Origin: an uncultured archaeon
GTDB lineage: Archaea > Altiarchaeota > Altiarchaeia > IMC4 > QMZM01
NCBI GenBank assembly: GCA_964549685.1
Contig: CAZJVE010000003.1
Span: forward strand, 1 to 64,000
DNA: 64,000 nt
Reading direction: 5' to 3'
The notes beneath the pieces are model-generated. The model was not told the DNA's origin, ran no database searches, and saw only the letters and a program-made list of their open reading frames with translations. Shown in pieces: positions 511-20,945 of this stretch (positions within the stretch are counted from its first letter, which is position 1; each line of letters starts with the position of its first letter). The position numbers and the translations under genes are program-made.

Positions 511-987
511 TTATGCCCTCCTCAGCAGGACAAGGTTGTTCAGGCCCTTCCTCCTGCGCTCGAGCAGACCCTTGTTCTCCAGCCGGTCGAGGATTCTGCT
601 CACCTTTGCCTTCGGGAGTTCCGTTTCCTTTACCAGCTCGGCCTGGAAGATGACGCCATCGGCCCTATAGATTGTTTCGTAGATTTTCTTGTCATCCTCT
701 TCAAGGTTCTTTACCTGCTCCGCGAGTTTCTTTTCCTTTTCCGCGTATTCTCTTTCCATGCCTCGGGCAGTTAGAATGACATAGACGCCAAGGATACCCA
801 GAAGCAGGGCTATGAAGAATCCGAGATATGCATAGAGTGGCAGGTCATTGCTCATGGGACACTGGCCCGTGGGACATCCGCACGATGACTCGTTGCTGTG
901 GTTTATCTCATTCACGAACGAAGTCAGCACGAACAGGAATACTATGGATATCCCTATTAGTGCCGCCCCGATGATTTTTGTATTCAT
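511..987 (-). CDS. Membrane-anchored winged-HTH protein (2 TM + C-terminal wHTH)
   Basis: Two hydrophobic segments flanking a CGCPTGQC loop; QAELVKETELPKAKVSRILDRLENKGLLERRRKG wHTH; ATG at 987 preferred. Confidence 0.75.
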   Translation of the reverse strand: MNTKIIGAALIGISIVFLFVLTSFVNEINHSNESSCGCPTGQCPMSNDLPLYAYLGFFIALLLGILGVYVILTARGMEREYAEKEKKLAEQVKNLEEDDKKIYETIYRADGVIFQAELVKETELPKAKVSRILDRLENKGLLERRRKGLNNLVLLRRA

Positions 988-1026
988 CTTGCTACTATAC
1001 AAAATATACTGAATCTATATTTAATA

Positions 1027-1040
1027 ATAACGATTGTTAT
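1027..1040. promoter_or_regulatory. Operator motif A variant (ATAACGATTGTTAT)
   Basis: Near-palindromic AAC-N4-GTT core upstream of the membrane wHTH gene. Confidence 0.5.
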
Positions 1041-1898
1041 CTAAGCCCTTAGCTTTTGGATTAAATCACAGGCACTGCAGACAGCATTCCTGGAGGGCTC
1101 TCCACAAAGCTCGCAATGCACCAGCTTTTCTGTTGTTTTGTAGTGTTCTTTCAAGGCCGGCAGGATATCCAGAAGGTTATTGACCAGATTCTGCGTTATT
1201 CCAGGGGATTCTGTCTCGAGGTCGTTGAGTATGTCCCTTATGGATGACCTATATGTATCGGTAGAACAGGGACATTTATCATAGACTACGGGGAATTTCA
1301 TCATTTCCGAGTATTTTCTGATTTCATCTTCAGGGCAAAAGTATAGGGGCTTTATTCTTGGGACAAATTTCCTGTCGCTAATTCGGCCGGTTCTTGGCCC
1401 TAGTTTTGCAGATAGCCCCATGTTTCCCTGAATAAAGTTCATTAAGACTGTCTGTGCCTCATCGTCCAGGTTATGGCCAGTCACTAGTTTAGTGGCATTC
1501 AGCTCTCTGACTTTTTTATTCAGCAAAGCCCTTCTCAAAACCCCGCAGACCGTGCATGACTTGAGCTTATGCTTCGATTTGAGTACCGACCTCATGTAAC
1601 AGACGGAATGTCCGAATTCCTCCTTGAATGATACTACATGGAGTTTTATGTCGTTCTCCCTGCAAAAAAGTTTGGTATTCTCCAGATTTTCCAGGGAATA
1701 GTTTCCGATTAGAAGGTCTATTATTATTGCTTCTACCGAGTAGCCGAATTTGTTTAGCAGATGGAGCGCGGTGGTTGAATCCTTGCCTCCGGAACATGCC
1801 ACCATCACTCTGTCTTCTTTGTCTATTAGATTATATTTTTTGATGGTTTCCTTCGCCCTATCCTCAAATTCTTTAATGAACTGCTCTTCCCTCGGCAT
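1041..1898 (-). CDS. ttuA: tRNA 2-thiolation protein, TtuA/Ncs6 family
   Basis: PP-loop SGGKDS, CxxC (CTVC), TGHNLDD, CP, C-terminal Zn finger CELC..CSAC. Confidence 0.85.
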   Translation of the reverse strand: MPREEQFIKEFEDRAKETIKKYNLIDKEDRVMVACSGGKDSTTALHLLNKFGYSVEAIIIDLLIGNYSLENLENTKLFCRENDIKLHVVSFKEEFGHSVCYMRSVLKSKHKLKSCTVCGVLRRALLNKKVRELNATKLVTGHNLDDEAQTVLMNFIQGNMGLSAKLGPRTGRISDRKFVPRIKPLYFCPEDEIRKYSEMMKFPVVYDKCPCSTDTYRSSIRDILNDLETESPGITQNLVNNLLDILPALKEHYKTTEKLVHCELCGEPSRNAVCSACDLIQKLRA

Positions 1899-1899
1899 T

Positions 1900-2373
1900 T
1901 TATTCAGTCAGTAGGGGCCCGCTGCAGTAGGGGCATTTCTTGTCGCATTCTTCCAGCATAGGGCATATGGTCCTTGAGAGAACTGCCATCGGATGCCCCT
2001 TGCTCTTTATCTCGAATTCGTTGCTCCAGCCGAAGGGTACTCTTTTTACCTTGAAGCCCGATTCCTTCAGGGATGACTCGACCCCTTTCAGAATCTTCAG
2101 CGCAATCTCGGGGTGGGAAAGGCTCTGCGATAAATGGGCAAAGGGAAATACAACGATATTCTTTAATTTCATCTTATCTGCAACCTTGACAATCTCATCC
2201 CTGATGGAGTTTATCGTTTCATCGGGCTTGATTTCGTCGTATTTCTCAACACATGAAAAGGCCACGAGGCAGTCATTCATGCTACCTTCTTTCTCCGTTG
2301 TTTCCTCGGCGAATTTGGTCCCTCTCTTTGCCCTGTACCAAATCCTGTCCACGTGGATGAATAGCAGTTTCAT
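1900..2373 (-). CDS. Stand-alone archaeal-type ThrRS editing-domain protein
   Basis: MKLLFIHVD, VVFPFAHLS, RVPFGW, KSKGHPMA motifs; extra C-terminal C-x5-C-x3-CPYC. Confidence 0.8.
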   Translation of the reverse strand: MKLLFIHVDRIWYRAKRGTKFAEETTEKEGSMNDCLVAFSCVEKYDEIKPDETINSIRDEIVKVADKMKLKNIVVFPFAHLSQSLSHPEIALKILKGVESSLKESGFKVKRVPFGWSNEFEIKSKGHPMAVLSRTICPMLEECDKKCPYCSGPLLTE

Positions 2374-3164
2374 TCTAAAGGATTCATGCTCCCGGACCTG
2401 TAGCCCTGTAAATCGAGCGTAATATATTTGAATCCGAGTCTTTTTAAGCTATTTACGATACGGTCCTTGTTTTTCAGGATGCTGGAGAATTCGTTGGGGG
2501 GGACCTCGATTCGGGCGAGTTCGTTGTAGTGCCTAACTCTGGCCTGCCCAATGCCGGAATCCATCAAAAGCCCCTCCGCTTTTTCCACTATCCTGAGTTT
2601 TTCAGGAGTTATTTCCTCGCCATATGGGATTCTCGAGGAGAGGCACGCCATCTGGGGTTTATTGTAGTTCGATAGCTTCAATTCCCTGGCAAGCTCCCGG
2701 ACCTCGTCCTTAGTAAGGCCTGTATCAAGAAGGGGGGTGCATATGCCCCCCTCACTCAGTGCCCTGTGCCCGGGCCGGTGGTCCCCCAGATCGTCGCGAT
2801 TAACGCCGAAGAGAATGGAATTGAAACCAAATTCTTTAGAAATTTTTTTAAGGACAGATATTGATTCAAGTTTGCAGTAGTAACATCTATCTGGGGAATT
2901 TTTTCTGAATTCCTTGTTGTTCAATTCATCATGTCCTACAACGAGATGCCTGATTCCAATCTCATTCGCAATTGCCTTAGCGTTCTCAAGCTCTCTTCGC
3001 GGGAGGGTTGATGAGTCTATTGTAACCGCTATCGCATTATCCCCGAGGGCGTCGCTGGCGGCCTTTGCCAGCAGAGTGCTGTCGATGCCGCCCGAGAATG
3101 CGACCAGAGCGCTCCCCCCGGATTCAATCAGGTTACAGAGTCTCTGGTATTTAGGGTTCCACAT
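2370..3164 (-). CDS. larE: ATP-dependent sulfur transferase, LarE family
   Basis: AFSGGIDS PP-loop, RCYYCK, ACLSSRIPYG, DLQGYRSGSMN. Confidence 0.85.
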   Translation of the reverse strand: MWNPKYQRLCNLIESGGSALVAFSGGIDSTLLAKAASDALGDNAIAVTIDSSTLPRRELENAKAIANEIGIRHLVVGHDELNNKEFRKNSPDRCYYCKLESISVLKKISKEFGFNSILFGVNRDDLGDHRPGHRALSEGGICTPLLDTGLTKDEVRELARELKLSNYNKPQMACLSSRIPYGEEITPEKLRIVEKAEGLLMDSGIGQARVRHYNELARIEVPPNEFSSILKNKDRIVNSLKRLGFKYITLDLQGYRSGSMNPLE

Positions 3165-3963
3165 ATTTTACTTCTACCTCTGGTTTCTCTCCCAGAAGAT
3201 TTGATGCTATCTCTGCCGCTTTCTCCCCGGACAGTAGCATCCCGCCAAACGTGGGACCCATCCTCGGAAGTCCGAATGCCGTTGCGGCTGACATTCCAGT
3301 AACAATCAGACCGGGATAGATTTCCGTCGTGTTCTCGACTACCGCATCCTCTGAGCGCTCCACCCACATGGGACTAAAGCCCTCAGTCTTCAGAATTCCC
3401 CTGTCCTCGAGGGATTTTACAACGCATGCGTCATGGCCAGTTGCGTCAATAACCACCTTGGATTCTATGGCAACCGGGTCCACGCAGGTTATAGCTCTGG
3501 GTAATGCTGAAACAGCGTTCCAGTTTATAACGGCTCCTGAAACCCTGCCCTCCTTCAGAATCACGTCCTCGAACCGGGTGCAGTTTATTATCTTGACCCC
3601 AGCATCGCAGGCCGAAGAGATTAGCTTAGAGCATGCATGCGGGCCGTCGGCAACAAACAGGCCGTCATTCAATTTCTTGTACGGGGCGTTAATCTCGTCC
3701 AGAACCCTCTGCCCGGGGGCCCTTACAGTCAGCTTGTTCATCAGATAGCCGCCAATCCAGAATCCGCCTCCGAGGTAGTTGTTGCTTTCCACTATCACGG
3801 TCTTTATGTTTCTCTGGGCGAGCCTCATCCCTGCCACTAATCCAGAGGGGCCGCCGCCAACTATGATAACATCGCTCTCTACATGGTCCAGAAACTCCTC
3901 GGAAAACTCCGAGACAATCGCCTTTGTTATGTCACTCTCCTGGGTTGGTTGAAATATAGCCAT
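3151..3963 (-). CDS. thi4: Thiazole synthase Thi4 (Cys-type)
   Basis: GGGPSG, GGGFWIGG, TCVDP, DATGHDA, PRMGPTFGGMLLSG. Confidence 0.92.
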   Translation of the reverse strand: MAIFQPTQESDITKAIVSEFSEEFLDHVESDVIIVGGGPSGLVAGMRLAQRNIKTVIVESNNYLGGGFWIGGYLMNKLTVRAPGQRVLDEINAPYKKLNDGLFVADGPHACSKLISSACDAGVKIINCTRFEDVILKEGRVSGAVINWNAVSALPRAITCVDPVAIESKVVIDATGHDACVVKSLEDRGILKTEGFSPMWVERSEDAVVENTTEIYPGLIVTGMSAATAFGLPRMGPTFGGMLLSGEKAAEIASNLLGEKPEVEVKYVEP

Positions 3964-3966
3964 TTT

Positions 3967-3980
3967 TTAACAATTGTTAA
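3967..3980. promoter_or_regulatory. Operator motif A directly upstream of thi4
   Basis: TTAACAATTGTTAA 3 nt from the start codon, between it and a minus-strand TTTATATA box at 3997-4004. Confidence 0.8.
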
Positions 3981-4008: not shown

Positions 4009-5298
4009 CTACTTGCTCCCGGCAAATCCTTTTTCAGTCGCCTCTAATATCTTATCAATATCCTCCTTTGTATGGGCGTCTGAAATAAAGAGGGATTCGA
4101 ACTGGCTCGGAGGGAGCAGAATTCCCTCCCCCAGCATCCTGTTGAAGAACGCCGCATATTTTTTGGTGTCTGACTTTTTTGCGCTCTCATAGTCATGGAC
4201 AGCATCGGGTGTAAAGAAGATGCATGACATTGATTCGATTCCAGAGATGGAAGCATCCACGCCAGCTTCATCTGCAATTTCTCTGATGCCGTCTCTAAGT
4301 CTCTTGGAATTTTTATTTAGATGTTCATAGATGCTTCCATCCTTCAACAATTCCAAAGTGGTTAAACCTGCAGTCAGCGCTATCGGATTTCCTGACAAAG
4401 TTCCAGCCTGATAAACCGGCCCTTCTGGGGCTATCTGCTCCATTATGTCGGCCCGGCCGCCATATGCACCGACCGGAAAGCCGCCGCCTATGACCTTGCC
4501 AAGGCAGGTAATGTCCGGGCTGATTTTATAGTAATCCTGTGCCCCACCATAGCATAGCCTGAAGCCGGTGATGACCTCATCGAAGACCAGGAGGATGTCA
4601 TTATCCTCAGTAATCTCCCTCATGCCCTGGAGGAATCCGTCCTTGGGCGGGATTACACCCATGTTGCCCGCCACGGGCTCGACTATAAGACAGGAGATGT
4701 CCTCGGTATTTTTTATTGTTTTTTCAAGTTCATTCAGGTTGTTGTATGGGATGGAAATCGTATTCTCCACAGACTCGGGAGTCACTCCCTTGCTATCGGG
4801 CATGGATAAGGTCATGGCCCCTGAACCCGCCTTGACCAGCAACGGGTCGAAATGCCCGTGATAGCAGCCCTCGAATTTTATCACCTTCTTTTTCCCGGTG
4901 AATCCCCTAGCCAGTCTGATTGCCGACATCACGGCCTCTGTTCCCGAGTTCACCATCCTGACCCTTTCGATGGATGGGACTGCGCTGGTTATCTCCCTGG
5001 CTATCTTTATCTCAGCTTCATGTGAGAGGCCATAGCTCGTGCCATGATCCAAGGCCTTTTTAACCTCTCCAATCACCCGGGGATGGGAGTGCCCAAGGAT
5101 AAGCGCGCCCCACGAGCATATCAAATCTATGTACTCGTTATCATCAGCATCAAATATCTTCGAGCCAGCTGCCTTTTTTATGAAAAGCGGGCTCCTGTCA
5201 ACTGCCTTGAATGCCCTCACAGGGCTGTTTACTCCCCCGGGCATGTATTCCTTCGCCAAGTCAAATAGCTTCCCTGAAGTCGAATCTTTCGAGCTCAT
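4009..5298 (-). CDS. hemL: Glutamate-1-semialdehyde 2,1-aminomutase
   Basis: PGGVNSPVRAF, NSGTEA, FDEVITGFR, LGKVIGGG, YQAGTLSGNP. Confidence 0.95.
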   Translation of the reverse strand: MSSKDSTSGKLFDLAKEYMPGGVNSPVRAFKAVDRSPLFIKKAAGSKIFDADDNEYIDLICSWGALILGHSHPRVIGEVKKALDHGTSYGLSHEAEIKIAREITSAVPSIERVRMVNSGTEAVMSAIRLARGFTGKKKVIKFEGCYHGHFDPLLVKAGSGAMTLSMPDSKGVTPESVENTISIPYNNLNELEKTIKNTEDISCLIVEPVAGNMGVIPPKDGFLQGMREITEDNDILLVFDEVITGFRLCYGGAQDYYKISPDITCLGKVIGGGFPVGAYGGRADIMEQIAPEGPVYQAGTLSGNPIALTAGLTTLELLKDGSIYEHLNKNSKRLRDGIREIADEAGVDASISGIESMSCIFFTPDAVHDYESAKKSDTKKYAAFFNRMLGEGILLPPSQFESLFISDAHTKEDIDKILEATEKGFAGSK

Positions 5299-6166
5299 TC
5301 TGAATCATTAGTTCAACCTTCTTAATTTCCTCCTTCTTGGCCAGTAGATTTTCCTTGGCTATTGCCTCGAAAAAATCCAGGCGCACGACTTTGACATTCT
5401 TCAGCTTGTCCACCTCTTTCGAGGCGTCCGGTGGGACCGCCAGATCCACCAGCAGTATTTCCCTGTCCAGGGGAATCTTATCAGGAGTTATTACAGGATG
5501 GGGTGCACTGGTTGCTGAGAAGACTATATCAACCACACTTAATAATTCGGGCAGCCTGTCCAGGCCAAAGGCCTTTCCCCCCACCTTGTCGGCCAGAATT
5601 TGGGCCCTCTCTAGATGTCTGTTGGATAATAGAATATTCTCGGCGCCTTTATTTTTCAAAGCAGTTGCAAGTTTTCCAGATATCATGCCGGAGCCCAGAA
5701 TTAATACTTTATCCGGTCTGAATTCCGCAGTGCTGAAAACGTGGTCTACCGCCATGGAGGCTATAGAGGTTTTACCATGGGATATCCTAGTCTTTGCTCT
5801 GGCCCTCCTTCCGAGTCTAATGGCTGAATCAAAGAATGTAGATAGATGCTCAGAGCAGTGTTCTTTCTCTATTGCGCTGCGGTGGGCATTCTTTACTTGC
5901 GATAAAATCTCGTTCTCTCCAAGAACCATTGAGTCCAGACCACATGAGACCCGTAGTAGATGCTCCAGTGCTCCCCTTCCCCCTTCTACAGGCAGCCCGT
6001 CCAGGTTCATATATTGAGTTGAATAAAGCTCTGCCCTGTTGCAGGTGAATAACGGAACGTAGTCATTCAAATCAGAGTGCTGGATGTAATCCTCAAACTC
6101 ATTAAATTTTGACCCCAATCTTCCAATACCGGTATCCCTATAGGTTGTCTTTAGATTATATAACAT
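5261..6166 (-). CDS. hemA: Glutamyl-tRNA reductase (short form)
   Basis: TCNRAELY, GLDSMVLGENEILSQVK, DLAVP; ATG at 6166; C-terminal dimerisation region apparently short or absent. Confidence 0.88.
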   Translation of the reverse strand: MLYNLKTTYRDTGIGRLGSKFNEFEDYIQHSDLNDYVPLFTCNRAELYSTQYMNLDGLPVEGGRGALEHLLRVSCGLDSMVLGENEILSQVKNAHRSAIEKEHCSEHLSTFFDSAIRLGRRARAKTRISHGKTSIASMAVDHVFSTAEFRPDKVLILGSGMISGKLATALKNKGAENILLSNRHLERAQILADKVGGKAFGLDRLPELLSVVDIVFSATSAPHPVITPDKIPLDREILLVDLAVPPDASKEVDKLKNVKVVRLDFFEAIAKENLLAKKEEIKKVELMIQNELERFDFREAI

Positions 6167-7481
6167 CTTCGGTCGATAGTTGCCCAAGAGCTGGTTTTTC
6201 CAGCATGAAGTCTACGTGGAGGTTAAATCTCTTTGCCTCTGCAGCGGTCCTTGGCCCTATAGCCATGATGGTTTTATCGTAGAGGATGGTCGGATGCCCC
6301 TCCATAAGGCGCCTGGTTATCAGGGGGCTGCTTAGGAATATAACGTCTGCGGATTCAAGAGTTTTATCCAGGTTGTTGTGCTTGATTGGGATGGTGTCGT
6401 AAACCGCTATATTCGTGAATTCCCGTGCGTTGGATTTTTTGGATGAGAATATGGTTACGTCTTCTTTGGAATATTTCTTCTTTAGGTATGTTTCCATGCC
6501 CTTCACAGTTTCCATATCAGGGGTCTGCGATTTCACGCCATATCTGTCCAGCTCCTCCTTTGTTCTGGAGCCAACTGCAACGAACTCCCCATCTGGCTTG
6601 TATTTGTCAAATACCGAGCGGACTGAATTAACGCTCGTGAATGCATAAACCTTTGAATTGGGTAGAGGGAATTCCAGATATTTTATAGTAAAAAGAGGAT
6701 AATTTACAGGATTGGCGCCAAGGCCCCTGAAAAATTCTATGGTCTCCTCCCCACGGTCCTCTTGTCTGAAACTGAGGATTCTTCTGTTCTTTAGGCGGGG
6801 CTTTCTCATCTTCAGGACATCCCCAACCACGAGTATTGCAGGCGAGGTTATCTCGGCCTCTTCTGCAATCTGAGTTATATCCTTAAGTCTGCCATCAATC
6901 AGCCTGTAATTATCCATGAACGCATTCTCGGCTATAAGGCATCTGGTTTCCCTGTCCCGTTTTTTTAACAGAGCAGCGATTATCTTCTCAAGGTTGAGCA
7001 CAGGCATGTAATAGATGAGGGTGTCTGCATCCGCATCTCCTACAGTTCCGTCTTTTTTCGTTCCGGTGATGAATGCAACGGATGATGAGTGGGTTCTATG
7101 GGTCAAAGGGATACCAAGCTCAGATAGGATTGAGAAGGTGCTAAGGCCGGGTATTATTTTAACATTAATTCCCCTTCCGGTTAGATACTCGTACTCCTCA
7201 AATCCTCTGCTGAACAGTAATGGATTACCACTCTTCAATCTGGCTACGGTCTTGCCTTCTGAGGCCAAGGAATGCATCAGCTCGTTTATCCCCTCCTGCT
7301 TCTTGCTCTGGCCTGGCTTCTTACCGACATAAATCTTTTCTGCATTGTTTGATTCCAGGATTGACTCATCGATGAGTCTGTCATAGAGGAGGACACCTGC
7401 TTTACTTATGGCCTGCCTGGCTTCAGCAGTTAGATGCTTCTTGTGCATGCCGCAACCGATTAGATAAACCTGTGCTTCCAT
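6156..7481 (-). CDS. cobA-hemD: Uroporphyrinogen-III C-methyltransferase / uroporphyrinogen-III synthase fusion
   Basis: LYDRL, YVGKKPG, RLKSGNP, IPGLS (SUMT); C-terminal FTSVNSV, AIGPRTA (HemD). Confidence 0.85.
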   Translation of the reverse strand: MEAQVYLIGCGMHKKHLTAEARQAISKAGVLLYDRLIDESILESNNAEKIYVGKKPGQSKKQEGINELMHSLASEGKTVARLKSGNPLLFSRGFEEYEYLTGRGINVKIIPGLSTFSILSELGIPLTHRTHSSSVAFITGTKKDGTVGDADADTLIYYMPVLNLEKIIAALLKKRDRETRCLIAENAFMDNYRLIDGRLKDITQIAEEAEITSPAILVVGDVLKMRKPRLKNRRILSFRQEDRGEETIEFFRGLGANPVNYPLFTIKYLEFPLPNSKVYAFTSVNSVRSVFDKYKPDGEFVAVGSRTKEELDRYGVKSQTPDMETVKGMETYLKKKYSKEDVTIFSSKKSNAREFTNIAVYDTIPIKHNNLDKTLESADVIFLSSPLITRRLMEGHPTILYDKTIMAIGPRTAAEAKRFNLHVDFMLEKPALGQLSTEDVI

Positions 7482-11616: not shown

Positions 11617-11843
11617 TTTCTCAGGGTCAGTTTCACGTGTTCGTTTATTCTTTCAAAATCAAATCTTAAATTATGCTTGAACGCTAGCTGACCTATCGTC
11701 TCTATCGCAGGGACGTAGTCTATGAGAATCTCCAGTGTCTCGCCTTCCTTAATCTGCTCTATCGGCTCCCTTACGTGAATAAGTGTGAAGGGACACTTCT
11801 CGCCCCTTAGGTCAAGGGTTTTTGGTTCGTCAGTCATTTTCAT
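11613..11843 (-). CDS. tusA: TusA/SirA-family sulfur carrier
   Basis: LDLRGEKCPFT motif. Confidence 0.85.
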   Translation of the reverse strand: MKMTDEPKTLDLRGEKCPFTLIHVREPIEQIKEGETLEILIDYVPAIETIGQLAFKHNLRFDFERINEHVKLTLRK

Positions 11844-14477: not shown

Positions 14478-15649
14478 TTTGTTTTATCTGCAATATCATG
14501 AAACGCGTCCCTGACCTTCCTGATTTCTTCGTTGTCCAAGCCATAGACCGAGAGTTTTATATGCTTCGTCAGACCTTTATGCACCCCGGTGATGTTTCTC
14601 TTTTCAAGCTCCTCGGCCAGGAAGAAGCCCTTCCTCTTATGTTTCTGGGAGATTTCCCAGAGCCCGGGAGTTTCAAAGTGCAATAGATGGTGATTGTGCG
14701 GATTCTGTCCAAGAAGCATAATCCCTCCCAGATTCTCCAGATCGTCTGCAAACCTCCTTGTTTTTTCCAGTTCTTTCTCCCATTTTTGAACCCTCTTTTT
14801 CACGTATGGGAAAGAGAGCATCGAGCTTATCAATGGAATGCCTCCAACGCTGCAGCCGAAGAGATTCGGAATCTTTTTTCCGAACGCTCTGCCGCTCCAG
14901 TCCGGTCTTTGCTTTGATGTCTGAAAAACCTTCTTGGAGTGCTCAAAGGTTGTTACCAGGTAACCTAACGGACCAAGAGAGGCCATTGACTTATGGGCTG
15001 ATAGAGTCAGAAAGTCAGCCTTCAATTCCTTGATGTTTATTGGCAAAATCCCCCCGGTATATGCGGCATTCACCATATACGGAATTTCATTCTCTTCAGA
15101 GATTTTACCAATCTCCTTTACCGGAGCCAGGTTGCCATAGTACGGGTCGGCGTGAGTGACGACAATCAGGGCCGGTAATTTCCCTGTGTCTTTCTTCACC
15201 TCGTCAATCTTATCAGCAAACGATTCAGCAGTGTAGTTATACTCGGGATAGCCCGAATGCGGAGGCTCAGCAACCTTTAAGCCGTTCATCTCCGCTGCAA
15301 TATTTGTCGTATAGTGGCTGTTTGGGTCCGCGATTATGGTATCTGAGTAAGAACCCTCCTTTGCCAATTCTTTGACAGTGTGCATCACCGCAAACTGGGC
15401 AGCTCTGCAGCCGAAGGTATGTTCAGCCACATCCCCACCGAAGAATTCCGCGATTTTTTGGAGGTGGTCCTTGATAGAGGGTTTCGTAACAAGACTTGAC
15501 CTCCCTTCCAGGCAGTTGAAACATAGGGAATAGCCAACTCTCAGCCACTCTTCATTGCATAGATTCTCCCGAACCTTCTCGGGCAGGATTCCACCCGTCA
15601 TTAGCGGATTTACTATCGCATGGCCCTTATATTTGTTTGTAAATTCCAT
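14474..15649 (-). CDS. pscS: O-phosphoseryl-tRNA:Cys-tRNA synthase (SepCysS)
   Basis: NPLMTGG, GYSLCFNC, PLP Lys in SAHKSMAS, third Cys in LFGCSVGG, KRKGFFL, KLSVYGL. Confidence 0.92.
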   Translation of the reverse strand: MEFTNKYKGHAIVNPLMTGGILPEKVRENLCNEEWLRVGYSLCFNCLEGRSSLVTKPSIKDHLQKIAEFFGGDVAEHTFGCRAAQFAVMHTVKELAKEGSYSDTIIADPNSHYTTNIAAEMNGLKVAEPPHSGYPEYNYTAESFADKIDEVKKDTGKLPALIVVTHADPYYGNLAPVKEIGKISEENEIPYMVNAAYTGGILPINIKELKADFLTLSAHKSMASLGPLGYLVTTFEHSKKVFQTSKQRPDWSGRAFGKKIPNLFGCSVGGIPLISSMLSFPYVKKRVQKWEKELEKTRRFADDLENLGGIMLLGQNPHNHHLLHFETPGLWEISQKHKRKGFFLAEELEKRNITGVHKGLTKHIKLSVYGLDNEEIRKVRDAFHDIADKTK

Positions 15650-15650
15650 C

Positions 15651-16565
15651 CTATCCTGCTTTGATATTCTTCTCTATCAGCCCCTTTATCGTTTCTTTCA
15701 GATTCTCGCCCGAATTTAGATTGACTCCAATCTCCTCGGGCTCAAAGGTCCCAGTGACATCCGACCAGTTGCCTCTCTTCCTCACTGTAAATGGTTTCTC
15801 TGCTCTCACTTCGCCCTTCACTGGCACATGAATAGTAATCCAATTGTATCTTCCCTCCTGGTCTTTATTGAGATAGATTCGGACATCCCAGTCATCAATC
15901 CTTCCGAAGAAGTAGTCCGTCCCCTTCTCAAAGCCATTGTCCTTAAGACTCAGGATTATCTGTTTGGGGATATCTGACGTAAGACAGCCACAGAGAGCGC
16001 CGCCCCTCTTTTCAAGAGCGGCTATCTTCTCAGCTATCTTCTTTGCGTCGTCATAAGGCAGTGATAGTATCAACTCGCTATCTTTATACTCTCCAAGGAT
16101 TCTTGCTCCGTTGCAGAGCACTGTGATATTTGGTTTCCCTTCCATGAAGACCTTTGCTGTTGCTTCCCCGCAGACTGCAATCTCTCCCTTAAACTCTGCA
16201 GAGATTCCGCCCTTTATCACTGCCAGGTCCATCAGCTGCTTGGGAGTTACTATCGCAAGGACTACATCAGCCCCTTCGACAGGGCCGAGCCTGACCGCCT
16301 TCGTATTTGATGGCTTGATCCTTGGCTCTACATCCACGTACTTTGGCTCTACAAAGCCCATAGCTAATTCAGCGTTGGGGCATGAGAGGTCCTTTGCATC
16401 ATAAGTGAAGGCCTTTCCAAGAGCAGCCTCTCTGACCATCTGGCAGTGGCGCAGGGGCTTCTTAGGCCTATTGAAATCCTTCGGAACCTCATTCAGGATT
16501 TTGATTCCGACCAGCCTGTACTTGCTCCCCAAATAGGACCTTATCGTGTTGTCTATGTCGACCAT
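15651..16565 (-). CDS. DUF169-family protein with C-terminal extension
   Basis: HCQMVREA, LSCPNAELAMG, AVCGEAT, LCNGAR Cys pattern. Confidence 0.7.
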   Translation of the reverse strand: MVDIDNTIRSYLGSKYRLVGIKILNEVPKDFNRPKKPLRHCQMVREAALGKAFTYDAKDLSCPNAELAMGFVEPKYVDVEPRIKPSNTKAVRLGPVEGADVVLAIVTPKQLMDLAVIKGGISAEFKGEIAVCGEATAKVFMEGKPNITVLCNGARILGEYKDSELILSLPYDDAKKIAEKIAALEKRGGALCGCLTSDIPKQIILSLKDNGFEKGTDYFFGRIDDWDVRIYLNKDQEGRYNWITIHVPVKGEVRAEKPFTVRKRGNWSDVTGTFEPEEIGVNLNSGENLKETIKGLIEKNIKAG

Positions 16566-16566: not shown

Positions 16567-16878
16567 TTACAGATTCTTGTTAATTATCCCCCGTATATAT
16601 TCCGCAGGTACCATCCCTACACTCCTCTCAACCTCCTTGCCGTTCTTGAATAATACCAGAGTGGGAATACTCATAATTCCCAGCTCCGATGCGGTTTTTT
16701 TGTGCTCGTCTACATCAACCTTGGCGAATAGGATTTTGTCCTCATACTCTTTCGTTAAATGTTCCAGTTCCGGCTCCAGGAATTTACACGGATTACACCA
16801 CTCGGCCCAGAAGTCCACCAGGACAAGAGCATTGCCCCGGATAACTTCCTGAAAGGTCAGGTCGGTTATGTTCTTCAT
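16567..16878 (-). CDS. trxA: Thioredoxin
   Basis: DFWAEWCNPCK, IMSIPTL. Confidence 0.93.
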   Translation of the reverse strand: MKNITDLTFQEVIRGNALVLVDFWAEWCNPCKFLEPELEHLTKEYEDKILFAKVDVDEHKKTASELGIMSIPTLVLFKNGKEVERSVGMVPAEYIRGIINKNL

Positions 16879-16879: not shown

Positions 16880-17113
16880 TTACCCTTTTTTTATCACGAG
16901 TCTCCAGTCTTTGTCATTAATCTTCTCTACCTCGATAACTTTGTTACCCTCGTTCTCCATGCTCCTGGGAACATTCTCCACTGCAGGGAGATGATTCAGC
17001 GTAATCTCCAGGACCTCCCCGGGATTCATATTTTCTATAGCCAGCTTTGACTTTACAAAGGTGTATGGGCATACCTCGCCCCTGATGTCTATCTTTTTGT
17101 TTAGGTTAACCAT
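16880..17113 (-). CDS. tusA: TusA/SirA-family sulfur carrier (second copy)
   Basis: IDIRGEVCPYTFVKSKL. Confidence 0.88.
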   Translation of the reverse strand: MVNLNKKIDIRGEVCPYTFVKSKLAIENMNPGEVLEITLNHLPAVENVPRSMENEGNKVIEVEKINDKDWRLVIKKG

Positions 17114-17727
17114 TCTAATTCCCTTATTGCTTCCTCCACCATTCCATCGAAATTCAGTTCGTTTTCACATTCGATAATCTCATCCAATCTCGCCTGGGTG
17201 GTGGGTTTCTTTGGGACCAGGCCACAACATATTCCTTTCTGTGTTGAGATATCATAGGTCCCTATGTCCCTGGCTATTTTTATGATTTCCTCCTTGTCGA
17301 ATCCTATCAGGGGCCTTAGGACAGGTATCCCAACGGCCCGGTCTATAATCTCCAGATTATAGAGGGTTTGGCTGGCTACCTGTGCAATGGCTTCCCCGGT
17401 CAGGAGCGCAGTGGCCTTTTCCTTCTCAGCCAATTTTTCCGCTACCCTATACATCAATCTCTTGCAGAGGACGCACTGCAATCTTCTGTTGCATTCCCTG
17501 GCAATCCTGAATCGTTTTTCGCCGATAGGTATGAATGCTGTCTTTATATCCCTGCCCGTAGCAGTCTGTAGCTGCTTGACTACCGACCTCACCCTTTCCA
17601 GGGCATTCTTGTCCGTGTAAGGCTCACCCCAGAAATGTAGTGCCGTTATCTCCACGTCCTTCTTTAACATGAGATGGGTCGCTACTGGGGAGTCTATCCC
17701 TCCGGATAAAAGTGAAATGAGTTTCAT
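17101..17727 (-). CDS. thiI: ThiI-type 4-thiouridine synthase, catalytic domain only
   Basis: LLSGGIDSPVA, CVLCKR, GEAIAQVASQT, RPLIGFDKEEI, CC; no THUMP or rhodanese domain. Confidence 0.82.
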   Translation of the reverse strand: MKLISLLSGGIDSPVATHLMLKKDVEITALHFWGEPYTDKNALERVRSVVKQLQTATGRDIKTAFIPIGEKRFRIARECNRRLQCVLCKRLMYRVAEKLAEKEKATALLTGEAIAQVASQTLYNLEIIDRAVGIPVLRPLIGFDKEEIIKIARDIGTYDISTQKGICCGLVPKKPTTQARLDEIIECENELNFDGMVEEAIRELEWLT

Positions 17728-17728
17728 T

Positions 17729-18535
17729 CTAAAAACCAACCTGACAGGATTCCTCGTAGTCGATTAATTCCTTGATGGTTGGATTTTCTCCGCAGACAGG
17801 GCAGTTTGGGTCTCTTTGGGTTCTGACCTCCCGAAAGCTCATCTCCAGAGCGTTATAAAGCAGGAGCCTATTTTTCAATAGGTCTCCTACACCGAGGATG
17901 TACTTGAGCGCTTCTGTCGCCTGTATCAAGCCGACAACCCCCGGCAGGACGCCAAGGACTCCGGCTTCCTGACAGCTGGGAACCATTCCAGGAGGAGGCG
18001 GTTCCGGGAAGAGGCACCTGTAGCATGCTCCTTCCTTTGGAATTATTGTGGTTGCCTGTCCCTCAAACCTGAACACGGAGCCATGAACCAGGGCCTTTCC
18101 TGCCAAAACTGCGGCATCATTAACCAGGTAGCGTGTCGGAAAATTATCGCAACCGTCTACGATTACGTCATAGTCCTTTACTATATCAAGTATATTCTCG
18201 GATGTCAGCCTCTCCTGATGCAGAATTACCTCTGTATCTGGATTAAGCAGCTCGATTTTTTCTTTTGCCGATATGGTCTTCTCCCCGTCAAGGTCCTTTA
18301 CTGTGTGGAGAATCTGCCTCTGGAGATTGCTAAGCTCTACCGTGTCAGAATCGACTATACCCAGCTTCCCTACCCCGGCAGCCGCGAGGTATATTGTTGA
18401 GGGGCATCCAAGCCCTCCCGCACCTATGGCAAGCACCCTGGCTTCGTTTATCTTCTTCTGTCCCTTCCCACCAACCTCTGGCAAGATTATATGCCTGCTA
18501 TATCTCTTTATCTGCTCCTCAGTAAATTCAACCAT
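17729..18535 (-). CDS. moeB: E1-like sulfur-carrier adenylyltransferase (MoeB/ThiF/UbaA)
   Basis: RYSRHIILPE, GAGGLG, SNLQRQ, CYRC, SCQEAGV, CPVC. Confidence 0.92.
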   Translation of the reverse strand: MVEFTEEQIKRYSRHIILPEVGGKGQKKINEARVLAIGAGGLGCPSTIYLAAAGVGKLGIVDSDTVELSNLQRQILHTVKDLDGEKTISAKEKIELLNPDTEVILHQERLTSENILDIVKDYDVIVDGCDNFPTRYLVNDAAVLAGKALVHGSVFRFEGQATTIIPKEGACYRCLFPEPPPPGMVPSCQEAGVLGVLPGVVGLIQATEALKYILGVGDLLKNRLLLYNALEMSFREVRTQRDPNCPVCGENPTIKELIDYEESCQVGF

Positions 18536-18556
18536 TTTGGGGATTCTCAACCAGTT

Positions 18557-18832
18557 TTAACCTCCTGCGATAGCAGGTACAATCGATACCTCACTGTCTT
18601 CATTCACCGAAGTATCAAGGCCTTCAGAGAACCTTATGTCTTCCCCGGCTACATAGATATTCACAAACCTTCTCACTTTTCCATCCTCATCGAGAAGCTT
18701 TTCCTTGATTCCAGCATATTGTTTATTCAGATTCTCTACCAGTTCCCTTACATTGCCGCCCTCAGAGTTCACCTCAAGTTCCCCCCCAGTCAGCTTGGTA
18801 AGGGGTGTCGGTATTCTAACTTTTATTGACAT
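18557..18832 (-). CDS. Ubiquitin-like sulfur carrier (SAMP/MoaD/CysO-like)
   Basis: IPTPL, RRFVNIYV, C-terminal PAIAGG; GGAGGTGA RBS before ATG at 18832. Confidence 0.9.
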   Translation of the reverse strand: MSIKVRIPTPLTKLTGGELEVNSEGGNVRELVENLNKQYAGIKEKLLDEDGKVRRFVNIYVAGEDIRFSEGLDTSVNEDSEVSIVPAIAGG

Positions 18833-18849
18833 GTTGTCACCTCCAATGA

Positions 18850-18863
18850 TTAACAATTGTTAA
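18850..18863. promoter_or_regulatory. Operator motif A upstream of the SAMP operon
   Basis: TTAACAATTGTTAA between minus-strand TTTATATA (18887-18894) and the RBS. Confidence 0.8.
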
Positions 18864-18909
18864 TATATTAATGATAGTGATATTTGTATATAAATATTAA
18901 TATGGTAAA

Positions 18910-18929
18910 AATATGCTAATATGCATAAT
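18910..18929. promoter_or_regulatory. Motif B (ATTATGC-N6-GCATAAT), one mismatch
   Basis: AATATGC-taatat-GCATAAT, 15 nt upstream of the TATA box. Confidence 0.65.
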
Positions 18930-18949
18930 TAATCCACTAAGGGCGTAAA

Positions 18950-19023
18950 AGCAGGGAGGGGGATTTGAACCCCCGATCGTCGGTCTGCAACCGACTGCCT
19001 TAACCGGGCTTGGCCACCCCTGC
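18950..19023 (-). tRNA. tRNA-Cys (GCA)
   Basis: Cloverleaf: GCAGGGG/UCCCUGC acceptor, GUCGG-UUGCAGA-CCGAC anticodon arm, GGGGG-UUCAAAU-CCCCC T arm, U73, G37; CCA not encoded. Confidence 0.93.
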
Positions 19024-19104
19024 ACCGGGTTAAATGCTGTTGGGATATCAAAACGTATAAGGGTAAAAACAAGGGTAAATGTAATCACTGCCGTACGTTG
19101 GCAG

Positions 19105-19623
19105 CTATTGCTCTATTTTACACCAGTTCTTGTTGAATATTTCGCTGAAGGACAGGCCCTTCTGCTTTAGTCTCACATACTCCTCTAACTCTCTGATGAA
19201 TCTTGTGGCCCATTTCTCAATCTCGGCCTTTACGTTCTCGTCGAGGTTGCTTCCCCGTCCGTATCCCGGGCATCCCCCGATTGCTTTCAATCTCAGTATG
19301 ATTTCATCCCCGTATGCTATGCCATTGAATTTGAACGGGAGCATCCTGCAGAACAGCGGCTGCTTGTCGATTTTATGCAGCTCGCAGGAATAATCGTCGT
19401 TCAGGAAGTGGCACTTTCCGTCATGCTCCCGGGTTTTGAGTCTGAACAACCCCGGCTTGTCCTCGCTGGAATGGATGAATTCCTCCGGCTTAAGCTTTGT
19501 GGCATCGGAAATTCTCTTTATGCTGCCTATCGTTATCAGCGGCGGTTCGCAGCAAAATGCCTTGCATTCCTTGTATGCGCATTCCCACCTCTCTATTCCG
19601 TCTTTGGATATTATTTCAATCAT
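19105..19623 (-). CDS. YkgJ-family Cys-cluster (CxxCxxCC-like) protein
   Basis: C..CKAFCC, CHFL....C..H, PLFCRMLPF, CPGYG. Confidence 0.8.
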   Translation of the reverse strand: MIEIISKDGIERWECAYKECKAFCCEPPLITIGSIKRISDATKLKPEEFIHSSEDKPGLFRLKTREHDGKCHFLNDDYSCELHKIDKQPLFCRMLPFKFNGIAYGDEIILRLKAIGGCPGYGRGSNLDENVKAEIEKWATRFIRELEEYVRLKQKGLSFSEIFNKNWCKIEQ

Positions 19624-20945
19624 TTTACCTCGTCCAGGAGTTGTTTAGCCTCGCTCTCGAATCCAAATTTTTTGCCGTATTCGAGTAAGTCGTCCTCTAT
19701 CCTTCCATTCCCCGAACCGGTGATGTTTGCAACCACGACGCTGCCCTCTTTTAGGTCTCCCTGCCGCACCCCCTTTACAATACCGGCCAGGGTTACCCCG
19801 CCAACGAATTGTGAAAATATTCCCTCCTTGAAATAGAGGTCAAGCGTGCTTTTGAGTATGTCTCCCTCACTGACGCCCCAGCCCCCTCCGTTGCTCTTTT
19901 TAATGACATCTAAAGTTTGATACCCACTGCCGGGATTTCCGATGGCTATGCTCTTTGCAACGGTCTTTGGATTCTTTATTGGAACTATCTCCCCTGTTGA
20001 TATTGCATCTATTATTGGAGAACAGTCCTCTGACTGGGCCCCCCACATCCTTACATCATTGTCGAACAGGCCAAGGTCTCTTAATTCCCCTATGCCCTTG
20101 TATGCGGAACAGAAGAGCGCGCCGCTTCCCAGAGGGTATACGATGTTTACAGCCCCGTCTTTTATCTGCTCCTTGAGCTGAAGCGCTATCTCTGTCCCCG
20201 AGGTTTTTGAGCCCTCCTTGTAGTATGGCCTGAAGCTGCTGTTCGGGACAAAGGATTTCTTTTTGCCGGTTTTTTTGAGTTCTTCCTCGTTTGCCTTCTC
20301 GCAATCGTTCATGGCCTTGATGTTTGTCTCGTCATAGCTTCCATCGTACTCTATCAAATCGTTTGGATGGGGAAGGTAGTGTCGTATGGCATCCTTTTTA
20401 ACCTCACCCAGGCTTTCAGGCACATAGGCCCTGCAGGTTATGCCAGTTTCCCTTGCTAAATATGCAGTAGCTACAGCCAGGTTTCCTGTCGATGCTACAT
20501 AGACAGTATTATAACCTGCTTCCAGGGCTTTGTTAAAGGCCAAAGTAACAGGCCTGTCCTTGAACGACCTTGTCGGGTTGGTTTCGGTTGAGTCTAATTT
20601 GAAGTACAGTTCTATGCCAAGCTCGTCTCCAATCTCCTTCGACTTTACAAGCGGGGTGTATGGGGTTTCCCCGGATACAGCTACTTCATCCACTGGAAGG
20701 AGTTCCTTCAGCTTCCAGAAGTTGTCCGGTCTTTTGTTTAATTCATCCTCCGTGAGCACATCCCTTAGTGCATTGTAGTCGTACTTCACATCCAGCGGGC
20801 CCATGCAGAGGTCATAGCATATGTTCACCATGGTCGTGCCCTGCTCCTCTTTGAGCTTCTCCAGGCTGTATTTCTCGCCGCAGTTCAGGCATTCCAGATG
20901 ACTTACATAGCCAAACCCCGAGGTCGTATTATCCACGCTTTCCAT
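19620..20945 (-). CDS. Threonine synthase-like PLP enzyme
   Basis: N-terminal CLNC Zn ribbon, PTRSFKDR PLP Lys, ASTGNLA, RPYYKEGSKT, AKSIAIGNP. Confidence 0.82.
   Translation of the reverse strand: MESVDNTTSGFGYVSHLECLNCGEKYSLEKLKEEQGTTMVNICYDLCMGPLDVKYDYNALRDVLTEDELNKRPDNFWKLKELLPVDEVAVSGETPYTPLVKSKEIGDELGIELYFKLDSTETNPTRSFKDRPVTLAFNKALEAGYNTVYVASTGNLAVATAYLARETGITCRAYVPESLGEVKKDAIRHYLPHPNDLIEYDGSYDETNIKAMNDCEKANEEELKKTGKKKSFVPNSSFRPYYKEGSKTSGTEIALQLKEQIKDGAVNIVYPLGSGALFCSAYKGIGELRDLGLFDNDVRMWGAQSEDCSPIIDAISTGEIVPIKNPKTVAKSIAIGNPGSGYQTLDVIKKSNGGGWGVSEGDILKSTLDLYFKEGIFSQFVGGVTLAGIVKGVRQGDLKEGSVVVANITGSGNGRIEDDLLEYGKKFGFESEAKQLLDEVK

Follow-up and report, generated by a model that had tools for sequence, protein, structure and literature searches.

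Why should an archaeon gather on a single strand the genes for reducing sulfate together with so many enzymes that insert sulfur into other molecules, and along which path would the sulfur travel from the former to the latter? The question is raised by positions 511-20945 of a 64,000-nucleotide stretch (contig 3, CAZJVE010000003.1, of assembly GCA_964549685.1; hereafter the window) from an uncultured archaeon, where 26 protein genes and one tRNA-Cys gene all lie on the minus strand. We consider it fairly probable that this region is an accessory sulfur-assimilation island, which would reduce sulfate to sulfide and lead the sulfur on, in part at least by way of a small carrier protein, into the synthesis of methionine and of tRNA-bound cysteine. 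Gene families were assigned by Pfam and NCBIfam profile scores and tRNAs by ARAGORN. With the map of open reading frames, these confirm that the genes named in an earlier note on this DNA are all present on one strand, the minus one; a DUF169 protein, a 172-amino-acid protein, a 2-hydroxyacid dehydrogenase, an editing domain and a winged-helix protein were absent from its gene list. The genome that carries the window (G000; C-numbers are its contigs) is a bin of 1.17 Mb in 27 contigs that is 85% complete, and every genome-wide absence given below is to be read as provisional for that reason. It was set against a phylum survey of 61 genomes, in which G030 and G029 belong to the same genus as G000 and G044 to the same order, against 80 loci in bacterial genomes where relatives of the ThrC-like enzyme occur at 36-54% identity (among them Cyanobacteriota, Nitrospirota, Chloroflexota and Actinomycetota), and against 80 metagenome loci with relatives of the island SepCysS at 40-70% identity, 24 of which extend for 3 kb or more to either side of that gene. 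The archaeal origin that had been proposed for the DNA holds, as the genome is placed with the Altiarchaeota, and close homologues of its ThrC-like protein and of its DUF169 protein bear the names Altarchaeaceae or Altiarchaeales.

We will first examine whether sulfate can be brought down to sulfide. The set that the earlier note had read in this DNA is there in full: ATP sulfurylase (Sat, 11830-12987; 590.7 bits on NF003166 against a cut-off of 387), an Fe-S type adenosine 5'-phosphosulfate (APS) reductase (CysH, 12995-13693; 269.4 bits on TIGR02055 against 235.3), whose CC...CxxC and ECGLH motifs can be read directly in the sequence, a sulfite reductase with its siroheme genes, and a thioredoxin (16567-16878; 121 bits on TIGR01068 against 96.8), the likely reductant of CysH. 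A second thioredoxin gene lies on C20. Next to CysH, a permease of the TauE/SafE family (TSUP; 13710-14477; 103.5 bits on PF01925) is a candidate importer of sulfate or sulfite. The reductase gene (Sir, 10765-11616) encodes a small protein of 283 amino acids with the two NIR_SIR families (PF01077 and PF03460), and a TusA-like protein is encoded directly upstream of it (11613-11843; 49.9 bits on PF01206). This pairing of TusA with Sir is also found in the genomes G044 and G046 and at the loci L112, L136, L161, L163 and L190.

The reductase carries a siroheme-cluster motif (Cx5C...Cx3C), and a ferredoxin-like insert in its NIR_SIR domain brings two CxxCxxCxxxC motifs. Group III Dsr-like proteins (Dsr-LP) are defined by a coupled siroheme-[4Fe-4S] site together with peripheral, additional [4Fe-4S] clusters, and those of subgroup d retain all four R/K residues (PMC3448663, Susanti and Mukhopadhyay 2012). 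The island protein has every one of these features and falls in group III, subgroup d. Its R26, R94, K132 and K134 align with the sulfite-binding R355, R423, K460 and K462 of MjFsr, and among solved proteins it is best matched by an F420-dependent sulfite reductase, in the C-terminal half of the latter (7np8, 5e-47). In Fsr of group II, two among these sulfite-binding residues are replaced, which has been taken as a hint of a different substrate specificity (preprint). The earlier note had left room for a nitrite reductase; with the four residues retained, sulfite reductase is the better reading, and it is preferred because Sat and CysH stand in the same gene string.

The purpose of this reduction appears to be biosynthetic, as had been proposed. 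Neither AprA nor McrA was found in the genome, no match to an APS kinase (CysC/apsK) reaches its cut-off there, and the reductase is the sole NIR_SIR gene, so that there is no DsrAB; taken together, these results point to an assimilatory and not a dissimilatory pathway. On the strength of its gene content, we read the region as a genuine assimilatory sulfate-reduction island that is predicted to encode the complete APS route. Among archaea, Methanothermococcus thermolithotrophicus reportedly uses Fsr as the reductase of its sulfate assimilation. An ATP sulfurylase working with a Dsr-like or Fsr-type siroheme reductase is what the island shares with this methanogen (PMC10322725, in excerpt) and with anaerobic methanotrophic archaea (PMC6286981, in excerpt). 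The methanogen pathway runs, however, via 3'-phosphoadenosine 5'-phosphosulfate (PAPS) with atypical enzymes (PMC10322725), whereas the island relies on an Fe-S APS reductase of bacterial type together with a free Dsr-LP of group III, and neither an APS kinase nor McrA was found in its genome.

The cofactor of the reductase can be followed through the genes that lie downstream. SirC (9244-9699), HemB (8265-9206), HemC (7460-8413), a CobA-HemD fusion (6156-7481), HemA (5261-6187) and HemL (4009-5298), all assigned by NCBIfam, are predicted to span the path from glutamyl-tRNA to sirohydrochlorin and siroheme, the cofactor of the island reductase. The Hem genes have no paralogue elsewhere in the genome, and the island thus holds its only tetrapyrrole genes. 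G030 and G011 show the same gene order beside Sir, and G033 has a similar block. Two of the proteins are short: HemA (308 amino acids) covers model positions 82-330 of 416, a length that is kept in G030 and G011, and SirC consists of the N-terminal domain only, a length kept in G030.

The second part of the question is where the sulfide goes, and the ThrC-like gene at the upstream end of the island suggests a first destination. It encodes a ThrC-family enzyme dependent on pyridoxal 5'-phosphate (PLP), of 441 amino acids, with an N-terminal Zn ribbon (19620-20945; PALP, 188 bits). On the ThrC model TIGR00260 it reaches 143.9 bits, under the cut-off of 167.1, and a canonical ThrC with 273.5 bits on that model is encoded on C12, so that the island gene is not the threonine synthase of this genome. 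Cysteate synthase was considered as its identity and set aside as a weak match (45.6 bits on TIGR03844, where the cut-off is 324.9). The enzyme is accompanied by a sulfur carrier of the ThiS/MoaD fold, of the MetO/CysO type (18557-18856; 53.8 bits on PF02597), which ends in a free GG, and by an E1-type adenylyltransferase of the ThiF/MoeB/UbaA family with 273 amino acids (17729-18550; 280 bits on PF00899), the sole E1 found in the genome. The earlier note had called the carrier a SAMP and the enzyme ThrC-like. Both genes are indeed present, and the first name gives way to another: the carrier scores slightly below the SAMP1 cut-off (57.4 against 60) and below that of MoaD, the E1 reaches 354.7 bits on the UbaA model NF047750, below its cut-off of 450, and with both partners under their cut-offs the pair does not qualify as an archaeal SAMP/UbaA conjugation system. 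On present sequence comparisons, we regard the enzyme and the carrier as a putative pair of the MetM/MetO kind.

MetM is a homologue of ThrC, frequently misannotated as such, which makes homocysteine from O-phosphohomoserine and the thiocarboxylate of MetO (PMC13759103, in excerpt), and cyanobacterial MetM homologues adjoin metO-like genes (PMC12172450). In a quick maximum-likelihood tree of the ThrC family, rooted on TrpB and with Shimodaira-Hasegawa-like approximate likelihood-ratio (SH-aLRT) support, the canonical ThrCs form one clade (97) and the window protein belongs to a clade of 18 rows (99). A further clade of 22 rows (97) holds carrier-linked bacterial homologues, including cyanobacterial and actinobacterial ones, which are 36-40% identical to the window enzyme. 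The window clade is sister to this bacterial clade (the join has a support of 83), and we name the enzyme MetM-like, not MetM, because of this position. It is thus a candidate homocysteine synthase that would depend on a carrier thiocarboxylate. Gene neighbourhoods point the same way: a homologue of the carrier (45-63% identity) lies directly downstream of the ThrC-like gene in 71 of the 80 bacterial loci, some of these carriers ending in GG and some being extended, and carrier and E1 follow the ThrC-like gene in all five phylum genomes that have it (5/5). The same 80 bacterial loci have an E1 in 8 cases, a Sir-like gene in 4, CysH in 3 and Sat in 2, and one of those from Nitrospirota goes on with ThrC, then a presumed homoserine kinase, then aspartate kinase. 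A locus that resembles the island in its set of functions is L112, from Actinomycetota, which reads SirC-Sir-TusA-CysH-JAMM-CysK/M-MetM-like-[carrier-E1 fusion]-CobA. By analogy, it may be regarded as a bacterial counterpart built on the same logic, in which CysM stands where the archaeon has SepCysS.

These likenesses can be made more precise by comparison with two known systems. The MetM/MetO/MoeZ/Mec route of Streptomyces albulus (Hasebe et al. 2024, through PMC13759103, in excerpt) also places a ThrC-family PLP enzyme beside a carrier of the ThiS fold that is served by an E1. The comparison is one of description only, and there are differences: the window enzyme sits in a sister clade, the island E1 is without a rhodanese domain, and the window pair lies within an island for sulfate reduction that also contains SepCysS. 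No Mec or JAMM protease would be needed in the island, unlike in S. albulus, because its carrier ends in a free GG; a Pfam scan found no JAMM in the island, and this negative covers the island, no genome-wide JAMM search having been made. The second system belongs to Mycobacterium tuberculosis. In its CysO-CysM-MoeZ-Mec pathway, a protein thiocarboxylate is said to donate sulfur to a PLP enzyme acting on a substrate with a phosphoserine moiety, in connection with sulfate assimilation. What the island has in common with CysO-CysM is the idea of a protein thiocarboxylate as donor and the tie to sulfate assimilation, the gene set of L112 being comparable too. In contrast to M. tuberculosis, SepCysS takes the place of CysM and the substrate would be O-phosphoseryl-tRNA-Cys (Sep-tRNA-Cys); the use of a thiocarboxylate by SepCysS is hypothetical.

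SepCysS is the second destination. The island copy (14474-15649) reaches 386.8 bits on TIGR02539, against a cut-off of 365, and its residues C43, C46, C266 and K220 are invariant among 13 sequences; we take these to be the catalytic cysteines and the PLP lysine of the enzyme. It is not the only SepCysS of the organism, since a housekeeping copy of 557 bits is encoded on C14, beside a full-length ThrRS with its own editing domain. SepRS is present (531 bits against a cut-off of 381), and no CysRS, CysK/M or CysE reaches its cut-off in the genome, which extends to the whole assembly the absence of CysE and CysK noticed earlier within the window. From these matches, the tRNA-dependent route appears to be the sole cysteine route found in this genome. 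The island also has its own tRNA-Cys(GCA) gene (18950-19023), the sole tRNA of the window, with G37 and U73. A second tRNA-Cys(GCA) (G000:C4:59230-59303) has the same acceptor stem and U73, but an A at position 37; G37 is the archaeal identity base, of the SepRS type (PMC5424206, in excerpt). The island tRNA is flanked by the largest gaps of the whole stretch (81 and 93 nucleotides), with an AT-rich, TATA-like run solely in the gap that precedes the carrier gene and a T-run after the tRNA. From the carrier down to Sir, the coordinates give 12 genes that overlap or are spaced by 16 nucleotides or less.

Two further proteins seem to belong with SepCysS. Immediately upstream of it, a DUF169 protein of 304 amino acids is encoded (15651-16565; PF02596), of a subfamily that shows 45-64% identity across Altiarchaeales, Hydrothermarchaeales and bacteria, with C151, C192 and C194 invariant and C41, C62 and C132 nearly so. 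Its predicted fold has a mean pLDDT (predicted local distance difference test) of 88.7, and searches for a solved relative gave neither a sequence match in the PDB nor a Foldseek match at E <= 0.001. The best VIA-align results (maximum Z 7.0, below the level that the tool treats as meaningful) cover residues ~195-304 only and concern type III secretion system chaperone, YbjN and UEV/E2-like folds. The other protein is an editing domain of the ThrRS type that stands alone and whose C-terminal tail is rich in Cys (1900-2373; 163 bits on PF08915). Such a tail has been described for methanogens, and the domain, tRNA-Thr-ED, has been linked to clade VII SepCysS (both PMC5424206, in excerpt); it is proposed to clear Ser-tRNA-Cys (PMC5424206, in excerpt; also PMC8762117). 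The clade VII loci of Mukai et al. 2017 are indeed close in content, as DUF169 and thiF are drawn there and the Cys-rich tail of the editing domain is common (PMC5424206, in excerpt). By contrast, no function is given there for the neighbours, neither sulfate reduction nor a module of carrier and ThrC-like enzyme is described, and the word 'sulfate' occurs 0 times in the main text (PMC5424206, in the portion at hand), and here we find an island of 26 genes whose SepCysS comes in addition to a housekeeping copy. The two are likened by gene content and not by clade placement.

How regular is the company that SepCysS keeps? Among the 80 metagenome loci, its neighbours include DUF169 (21), tRNA-Cys (21), E1 (13), NadA (11), ThrC-like (10), TusA (10), the carrier (9), the PP-loop domain of ThiI (8), Sir-like (6), LarE (5), Thi4 (5), Sat (2), the 172-amino-acid protein (2) and CysH (1), and 48 of the 80 are without any of the counted relay or assimilation genes. 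For the 24 long loci, 13 have at least one relay or assimilation gene and 11 have none. Some of the arrangements are close to that of the island: L166 and L128 read LarE-ThrC-like-carrier-172-amino-acid protein-E1-TusA-DUF169-SepCysS, L164 reads ThrC-like-carrier-E1-TusA-SepCysS-DUF169, and L136 reads CysH-Sat-DUF169-SepCysS-Sir-Sir-TusA. A complex prediction of two SepCysS with the carrier, run without controls, gave a score of 0.02 and a mark of 0.32, which is no answer and counts neither way.

The remaining sulfur enzymes are to a large extent second copies. Next to the E1 come a ThiI PP-loop protein of 212 amino acids (17101-17739; 213 bits on PF02568; PRK08349) and the first TusA-like carrier (16880-17113; 82 bits on PF01206). 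The protein that the earlier note had called ThiI is thus there, as the PP-loop domain alone and not as a full ThiI: it has CxxC and CC, lacks a THUMP domain and spans just model positions 174-368 of TIGR00342. The full-length ThiI is a 368-amino-acid frame on C2 with an N-terminal extension, where THUMP is recognised by reading the sequence and not by a family scan. Further downstream lie Thi4 (3151-3963; 250 bits on TIGR00292 against a cut-off of 148; paralogue on C12), a LarE-family PP-loop sulfur transferase (2370-3164; 320 bits on TIGR00268 against 150; paralogue on C10) and a TtuA/NcsA-like PP-loop tRNA thiolase (1041-1898; PF01171; paralogue on C8), the last with a PP-loop, CxxC...C and a C-terminal Zn ribbon, and with scores of 192 for TtuA (cut-off 450) and 167 for NcsA (cut-off 500). 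In all, eight functions are duplicated in the genome, namely SepCysS, tRNA-Cys, ThiI, TtuA-like, LarE, Thi4, thioredoxin and Sat, the protein paralogues of the seven enzymes being 41-46% identical to the island copies. No paralogue was found in the genome for the E1, the carrier, the two TusA, DUF169, the reductase, CysH, TauE, the Hem genes or the 172-amino-acid protein.

The two Thi4 copies deserve a closer look. The island Thi4 has a T at the position of the donor Cys of Arabidopsis THI1 and is thus of the non-Cys (catalytic, sulfide-using) type, and the copy on C12 is likewise without the donor Cys. The idea of a carrier-fed, Cys-type island Thi4 opposed to a sulfide-using housekeeping copy was rejected, the donor Cys being lacking in both. 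The companions with which the island Thi4 clusters are those known from a survey of Thi4 neighbourhoods, where ThiS, ThiF, ThiI, CysI and LarE are found (10.1101/2025.09.23.678117, in excerpt); the Thi4 of that survey is, however, of the Cys, 'suicide' type, unlike that of the island.

The second Sat is of another kind. It is encoded at G000:C9:30776-33025 as a 749-amino-acid protein in which a pyruvate-kinase barrel and a PUA domain are fused to ATP sulfurylase (46% identity with the island Sat), and is followed by an AAA_33/KTI12-like P-loop kinase and a PHP-domain protein, in surroundings of nucleotidyl-transferase, EamA, phosphodiesterase and methyltransferase (glycan) genes. Because this kinase and this PHP protein follow it among glycan genes, the fusion probably serves sulfation through PAPS. 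Sat genes of about 50% identity in G029, G015, G016 and G018 are possible counterparts of the fusion.

The distribution of the island in the phylum shows it to be an accessory element, rare among these genomes and carried here by a small marine Altiarchaeota genome. Within the 61 genomes, a full-length orthologue of the reductase is found in 3 (G000, G030, G011), three more having other NIR_SIR types; CysH in 5 (G000, G030, G033, G044, G046); the island-type Sat in 2 (G000, G030); clade A of the ThrC-like enzymes in 5 (G000, G030, G011, G044, G046); any E1 in 7 (the same five with G020 and G042); and DUF169 in 3 (G000, G030, G044), plus a fragment in G002. The island-type SepCysS, at 72% identity or more, is in 3 of the 61, a set identical to that of DUF169, and SepCysS of any kind at E <= 1e-30 is in 50, all of which except G044 show the housekeeping type of 37-46%. 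All seven E1 genes of the phylum adjoin a ThrC-like or a SepCysS gene. In G029, which is of the same genus, the reductase, the ThrC-like enzyme, the E1 and DUF169 were not found. The most complete counterpart is that of G030, an independent assembly, which keeps the order of 25 among the 26 protein genes, at 74-96% amino acid identity (most at 82-96%); the dehydrogenase is missing from it and about 1.4 kb are inserted before Thi4.

Five further phylum genomes carry sub-modules of the island, as do metagenome contigs. G011 reads ThrC-like-carrier-E1-Sir-SirC-HemB-HemC-CobA/HemD-HemA-HemL-TusA and has neither Sat nor CysH, G046 reads Thi4-TtuA-ThrC-like-carrier-E1-TusA-ThiI(PP-loop)-thioredoxin, G044 reads 172-amino-acid protein-ThrC-like-carrier-E1-TusA-thioredoxin-DUF169-SepCysS-DUF169, and G020 reads ThrC-like-carrier-E1-SepCysS-ThiI(PP-loop). 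The arrangement in G042 (L122, G042:C7:314000-332000) is CysK-CysE-CysRS-E1-SepCysS-a ThiS-like protein of 92 amino acids ending in GG-ThiI(PP-loop), together with two radical-SAM/BATS proteins; no ThrC-like gene is present in this 18-kb stretch, and the genome has no ThrC-like match at E <= 1e-30. Genes for direct and for tRNA-dependent cysteine synthesis stand there side by side with a carrier system. In G046 and G044, the loci L033 (G046:C35) and L034 (G044:C136) run from CysH through a distant second PAPS-reductase-like gene to a TusA-like and a Sir-like gene; the Sir-like genes are just 24-25% identical to the window Sir and represent a different line of reductases within a module of this type.

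How could all these parts work together? In the explanation that we favour, sulfate would be imported by the TauE-family permease and activated to APS by Sat, APS would be reduced to sulfite by CysH with thioredoxin, and sulfite to sulfide by the siroheme reductase, whose cofactor the neighbouring Hem and Sir genes would make. The E1 would then adenylate the carrier, and sulfide, or sulfur bound to TusA or ThiI, would be converted into a carrier thiocarboxylate, from which the MetM-like enzyme may form homocysteine with O-phosphohomoserine. On the side of cysteine, the Sep-tRNA-Cys made by SepRS would be turned into Cys-tRNA-Cys by the island SepCysS acting on its own tRNA, with DUF169 as a possible partner, and the free editing domain would proofread by clearing Ser-tRNA-Cys. 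A carrier driven by ATP might capture sulfide at low concentration, which would suit life on sulfate and not in sulfidic water, and the island may in this way allow sulfate to serve as the source of sulfur compounds in a lineage that otherwise depends on free sulfide. It is gene linkage that suggests the channelling of sulfur through carriers, a suggestion already made in the earlier note.

Several observations weigh against this explanation as a whole. The incompleteness of the bin touches each of the absences on which it draws. The sole transporter of the island belongs to a family, TauE/SafE, that Pfam describes as a sulfite exporter, other transporter families not having been searched genome-wide. 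A chelatase of the CbiX type was not found in the genome, and SirC has just 151 amino acids. As to the carrier branch, the E1 has no rhodanese domain and the MetM-like enzyme falls beside, not inside, the carrier-linked bacterial clade. No homoserine kinase exceeds the TIGR00191 cut-off in the genome. A sulfide-type route to homocysteine (COG1900-CBS with NIL-ferredoxin) is present in G000 and in all four other genomes with a ThrC-like gene; the MetM-like enzyme is therefore not required for lack of an alternative, and the idea that it is the sole homocysteine route was rejected. Finally, free sulfide probably enters as well, given that each of the two Thi4 copies is of the type that uses it.

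The bolder part of the proposal concerns the donor of SepCysS, and it has to be weighed against simpler views. The carrier thiocarboxylate, made with the rhodanese-less E1 and with the help of the ThiI PP-loop protein, TusA and the YkgJ-like candidate, might be the physiological donor of the dedicated SepCysS, with DUF169 as an accessory factor of that enzyme and the island as a plug-in second sulfur toolkit that would enable growth on seawater sulfate; we hold this to be a real but doubtful possibility. A plainer view, to which we give something short of an even chance, is that free sulfide is the common currency, that carrier and E1 serve the ThrC-like enzyme alone, that the island SepCysS, Thi4, LarE and TtuA-like enzyme draw on sulfide set free by the reductase, and that the genes cluster through shared regulation and not for handing over sulfur. 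SepCysS does work in vitro with sulfide alone (PMC2330236, in excerpt), both Thi4 copies would use sulfide, 11 of the 24 long SepCysS loci have no relay gene nearby, and 63 of the 80 are without an E1, a carrier or a ThrC-like gene, all of which agrees with this view. However, it leaves unexplained why the carrier genes are accompanied by a second SepCysS, a second tRNA-Cys and DUF169, why G042 has E1-SepCysS-ThiS-like-ThiI(PP-loop) and no ThrC-like gene, and why 54 of the 61 genomes, mostly SepCysS-bearing, are without an E1 when all seven E1 genes stand beside a ThrC-like or SepCysS gene. The island SepCysS could also work in the opposite direction, mobilising sulfur to load the E1-activated carrier in place of the missing rhodanese domain. 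It belongs to the fold family of the cysteine desulfurases (NCBIfam side matches of 1e-13 to 1e-8) and scores below the housekeeping copy (387 against 557 bits), and in G042 the genes for CysRS, CysK and CysE adjoin the E1-SepCysS-ThiS-like string; we find this quite improbable nevertheless, for the protein stays above its equivalog cut-off with the three Cys and the PLP Lys kept, and a tRNA-Cys in the island and in 21 of the 80 related loci, with a tRNA editing domain in the island, indicates a tRNA-bound substrate.

Other alternatives bear on the ThrC-like enzyme and on the island itself. Cysteate synthase, a relative of ThrC, uses O-phosphoserine, and the enzyme may likewise combine O-phosphoserine with the carrier thiocarboxylate, in the manner of CysM and CysO, into free cysteine, for instance to supply the NifS-type desulfurase encoded nearby (22860-24029). 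With a homocysteine route already in the genome and no free-cysteine synthase found in it, with the enzyme in a clade separate from the MetM-like one, and with a MetY/MetB-type gene 2 kb from the ThrC-like gene of G011, this has some appeal, and yet we think it unlikely: sister-clade relatives share operons with ThrC, aspartate kinase and a presumed homoserine kinase, the characterised member of the family, MetM, uses O-phosphohomoserine, and at L112 a CysK/M gene coexists with a MetM-like one, implying that their products differ. Nor do we expect the association to be incidental, with carrier and E1 working in tRNA thiolation, molybdopterin synthesis or sampylation and the ThrC-like protein being an isozyme of threonine synthase. 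The E1 does resemble UbaA and MoeB, the island has a TtuA-like gene, and the TtuA of Thermus uses the thiocarboxylate of TtuB (PMC7138817, in excerpt). This is very improbable all the same, as the SAMP1 and UbaA scores stay below their cut-offs, the E1 is no housekeeping need of a phylum in which 54 of 61 genomes are without it, the carrier is 45-63% identical to those that follow ThrC-like genes in 71 of the 80 bacterial loci, and a canonical ThrC is encoded elsewhere. An artefact, in the form of a chimeric contig, or a reductase meant for the detoxification of sulfite or nitrite and not for assimilation, is in our eyes hardly credible. It is true that the genome is a metagenome bin in 27 contigs, that TauE is described as a sulfite exporter, and that free group III Dsr-LPs have been called biochemically uncharacterised (preprint). 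Against this, chimerism is unlikely because the separate assembly G030 has the same gene order, the GC content is 0.44-0.49 throughout the island, sulfite-making Sat and CysH belong to the same gene string as the reductase, and the latter retains its four sulfite-binding residues. Several studies have runs with the label marine or seawater metagenome in which the DNA is present, and in four runs beyond the likely source, from three studies, the stretch is covered at 99-100% identity without joints, by contigs that are short (0.3-1.3 kb) and cannot bridge the island. The sulfur-assimilation island thus stays the best explanation.

Some features lie at the margins of this scheme. Between the ThrC-like gene and the tRNA, the Cys-rich protein of 172 amino acids (19105-19623) has no Pfam or NCBIfam match, not even in Pfam at E 5. 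In a protein atlas built on language-model features it scores 0.92 to clusters of PF03692, which gives a lead only, that it may be YkgJ/CxxCxxCC-like; it adjoins the ThrC-like, carrier and E1 genes in G030, G044, L128 and L166. The D-2-hydroxyacid dehydrogenase (9709-10710; PF02826 and PF00389; PGDH-like, 216 bits against a cut-off of 454) stands between Sir and SirC as an insertion specific to G000, missing at that place in G030, and might supply phosphoserine. At the downstream end, a membrane-anchored winged-helix protein (511-1002; DUF7343, MarR_2), kept at the island end in G030, carries a hydrophobic segment at its N-terminus and, ahead of a second such segment, a CGCPxxxCP motif; it is a possible candidate for a membrane-bound sensor-regulator. 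Beyond the upstream edge, and divergent from it, NadA and the NifS/IscS-type cysteine desulfurase lie on the plus strand (21902-24029), the desulfurase being found in a genome where no free-cysteine synthase turned up. In one run (X5), a contig diverges from the window precisely at the 3' end of the tRNA-Cys (18950), with a loose end of 71 letters, and this may be a strain variant or the other tRNA-Cys locus. A 91-amino-acid frame (14269-14544), without a family and lying inside the TauE and SepCysS genes, was treated as spurious.

The modules themselves are already known: the APS route, the group III Dsr-LP, carrier-dependent synthesis of cysteine and methionine, loci of SepCysS with tRNA-Cys and an editing domain, and clusters of Thi4 with ThiS and ThiF. 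What is new is that they are all fused in one archaeal island, that this island, a rare addition, brings second copies of enzymes that insert sulfur, and that SepCysS repeatedly adjoins the E1 and carrier set. Later work has addressed persulfides in the sulfur supply of SepCysS. We found no literature that joins SepCysS with a thiocarboxylate or a sulfur carrier, in a search whose ranking may hide some and which did not extend to subscription papers. The sulfur donor of SepCysS in vivo was still awaiting investigation in a review of 2008 (PMC2330236, in excerpt). The operons of the island, of G042 (E1-SepCysS-ThiS-like-ThiI(PP-loop)) and of G020 now give a short list of candidate donor proteins, and this long-open question becomes testable. 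If the carrier does feed SepCysS, there would be a carrier-fed mode of tRNA-dependent cysteine synthesis, parallel to CysO-CysM. The free group III Dsr-like sulfite reductases gain a physiological context, in an operon with Sat and CysH, and the MetM/MetO route to homocysteine would be extended to archaea. More generally, the island suggests how a lineage that is mostly devoid of these genes may gain independence from ambient sulfide in sulfate-rich seawater.

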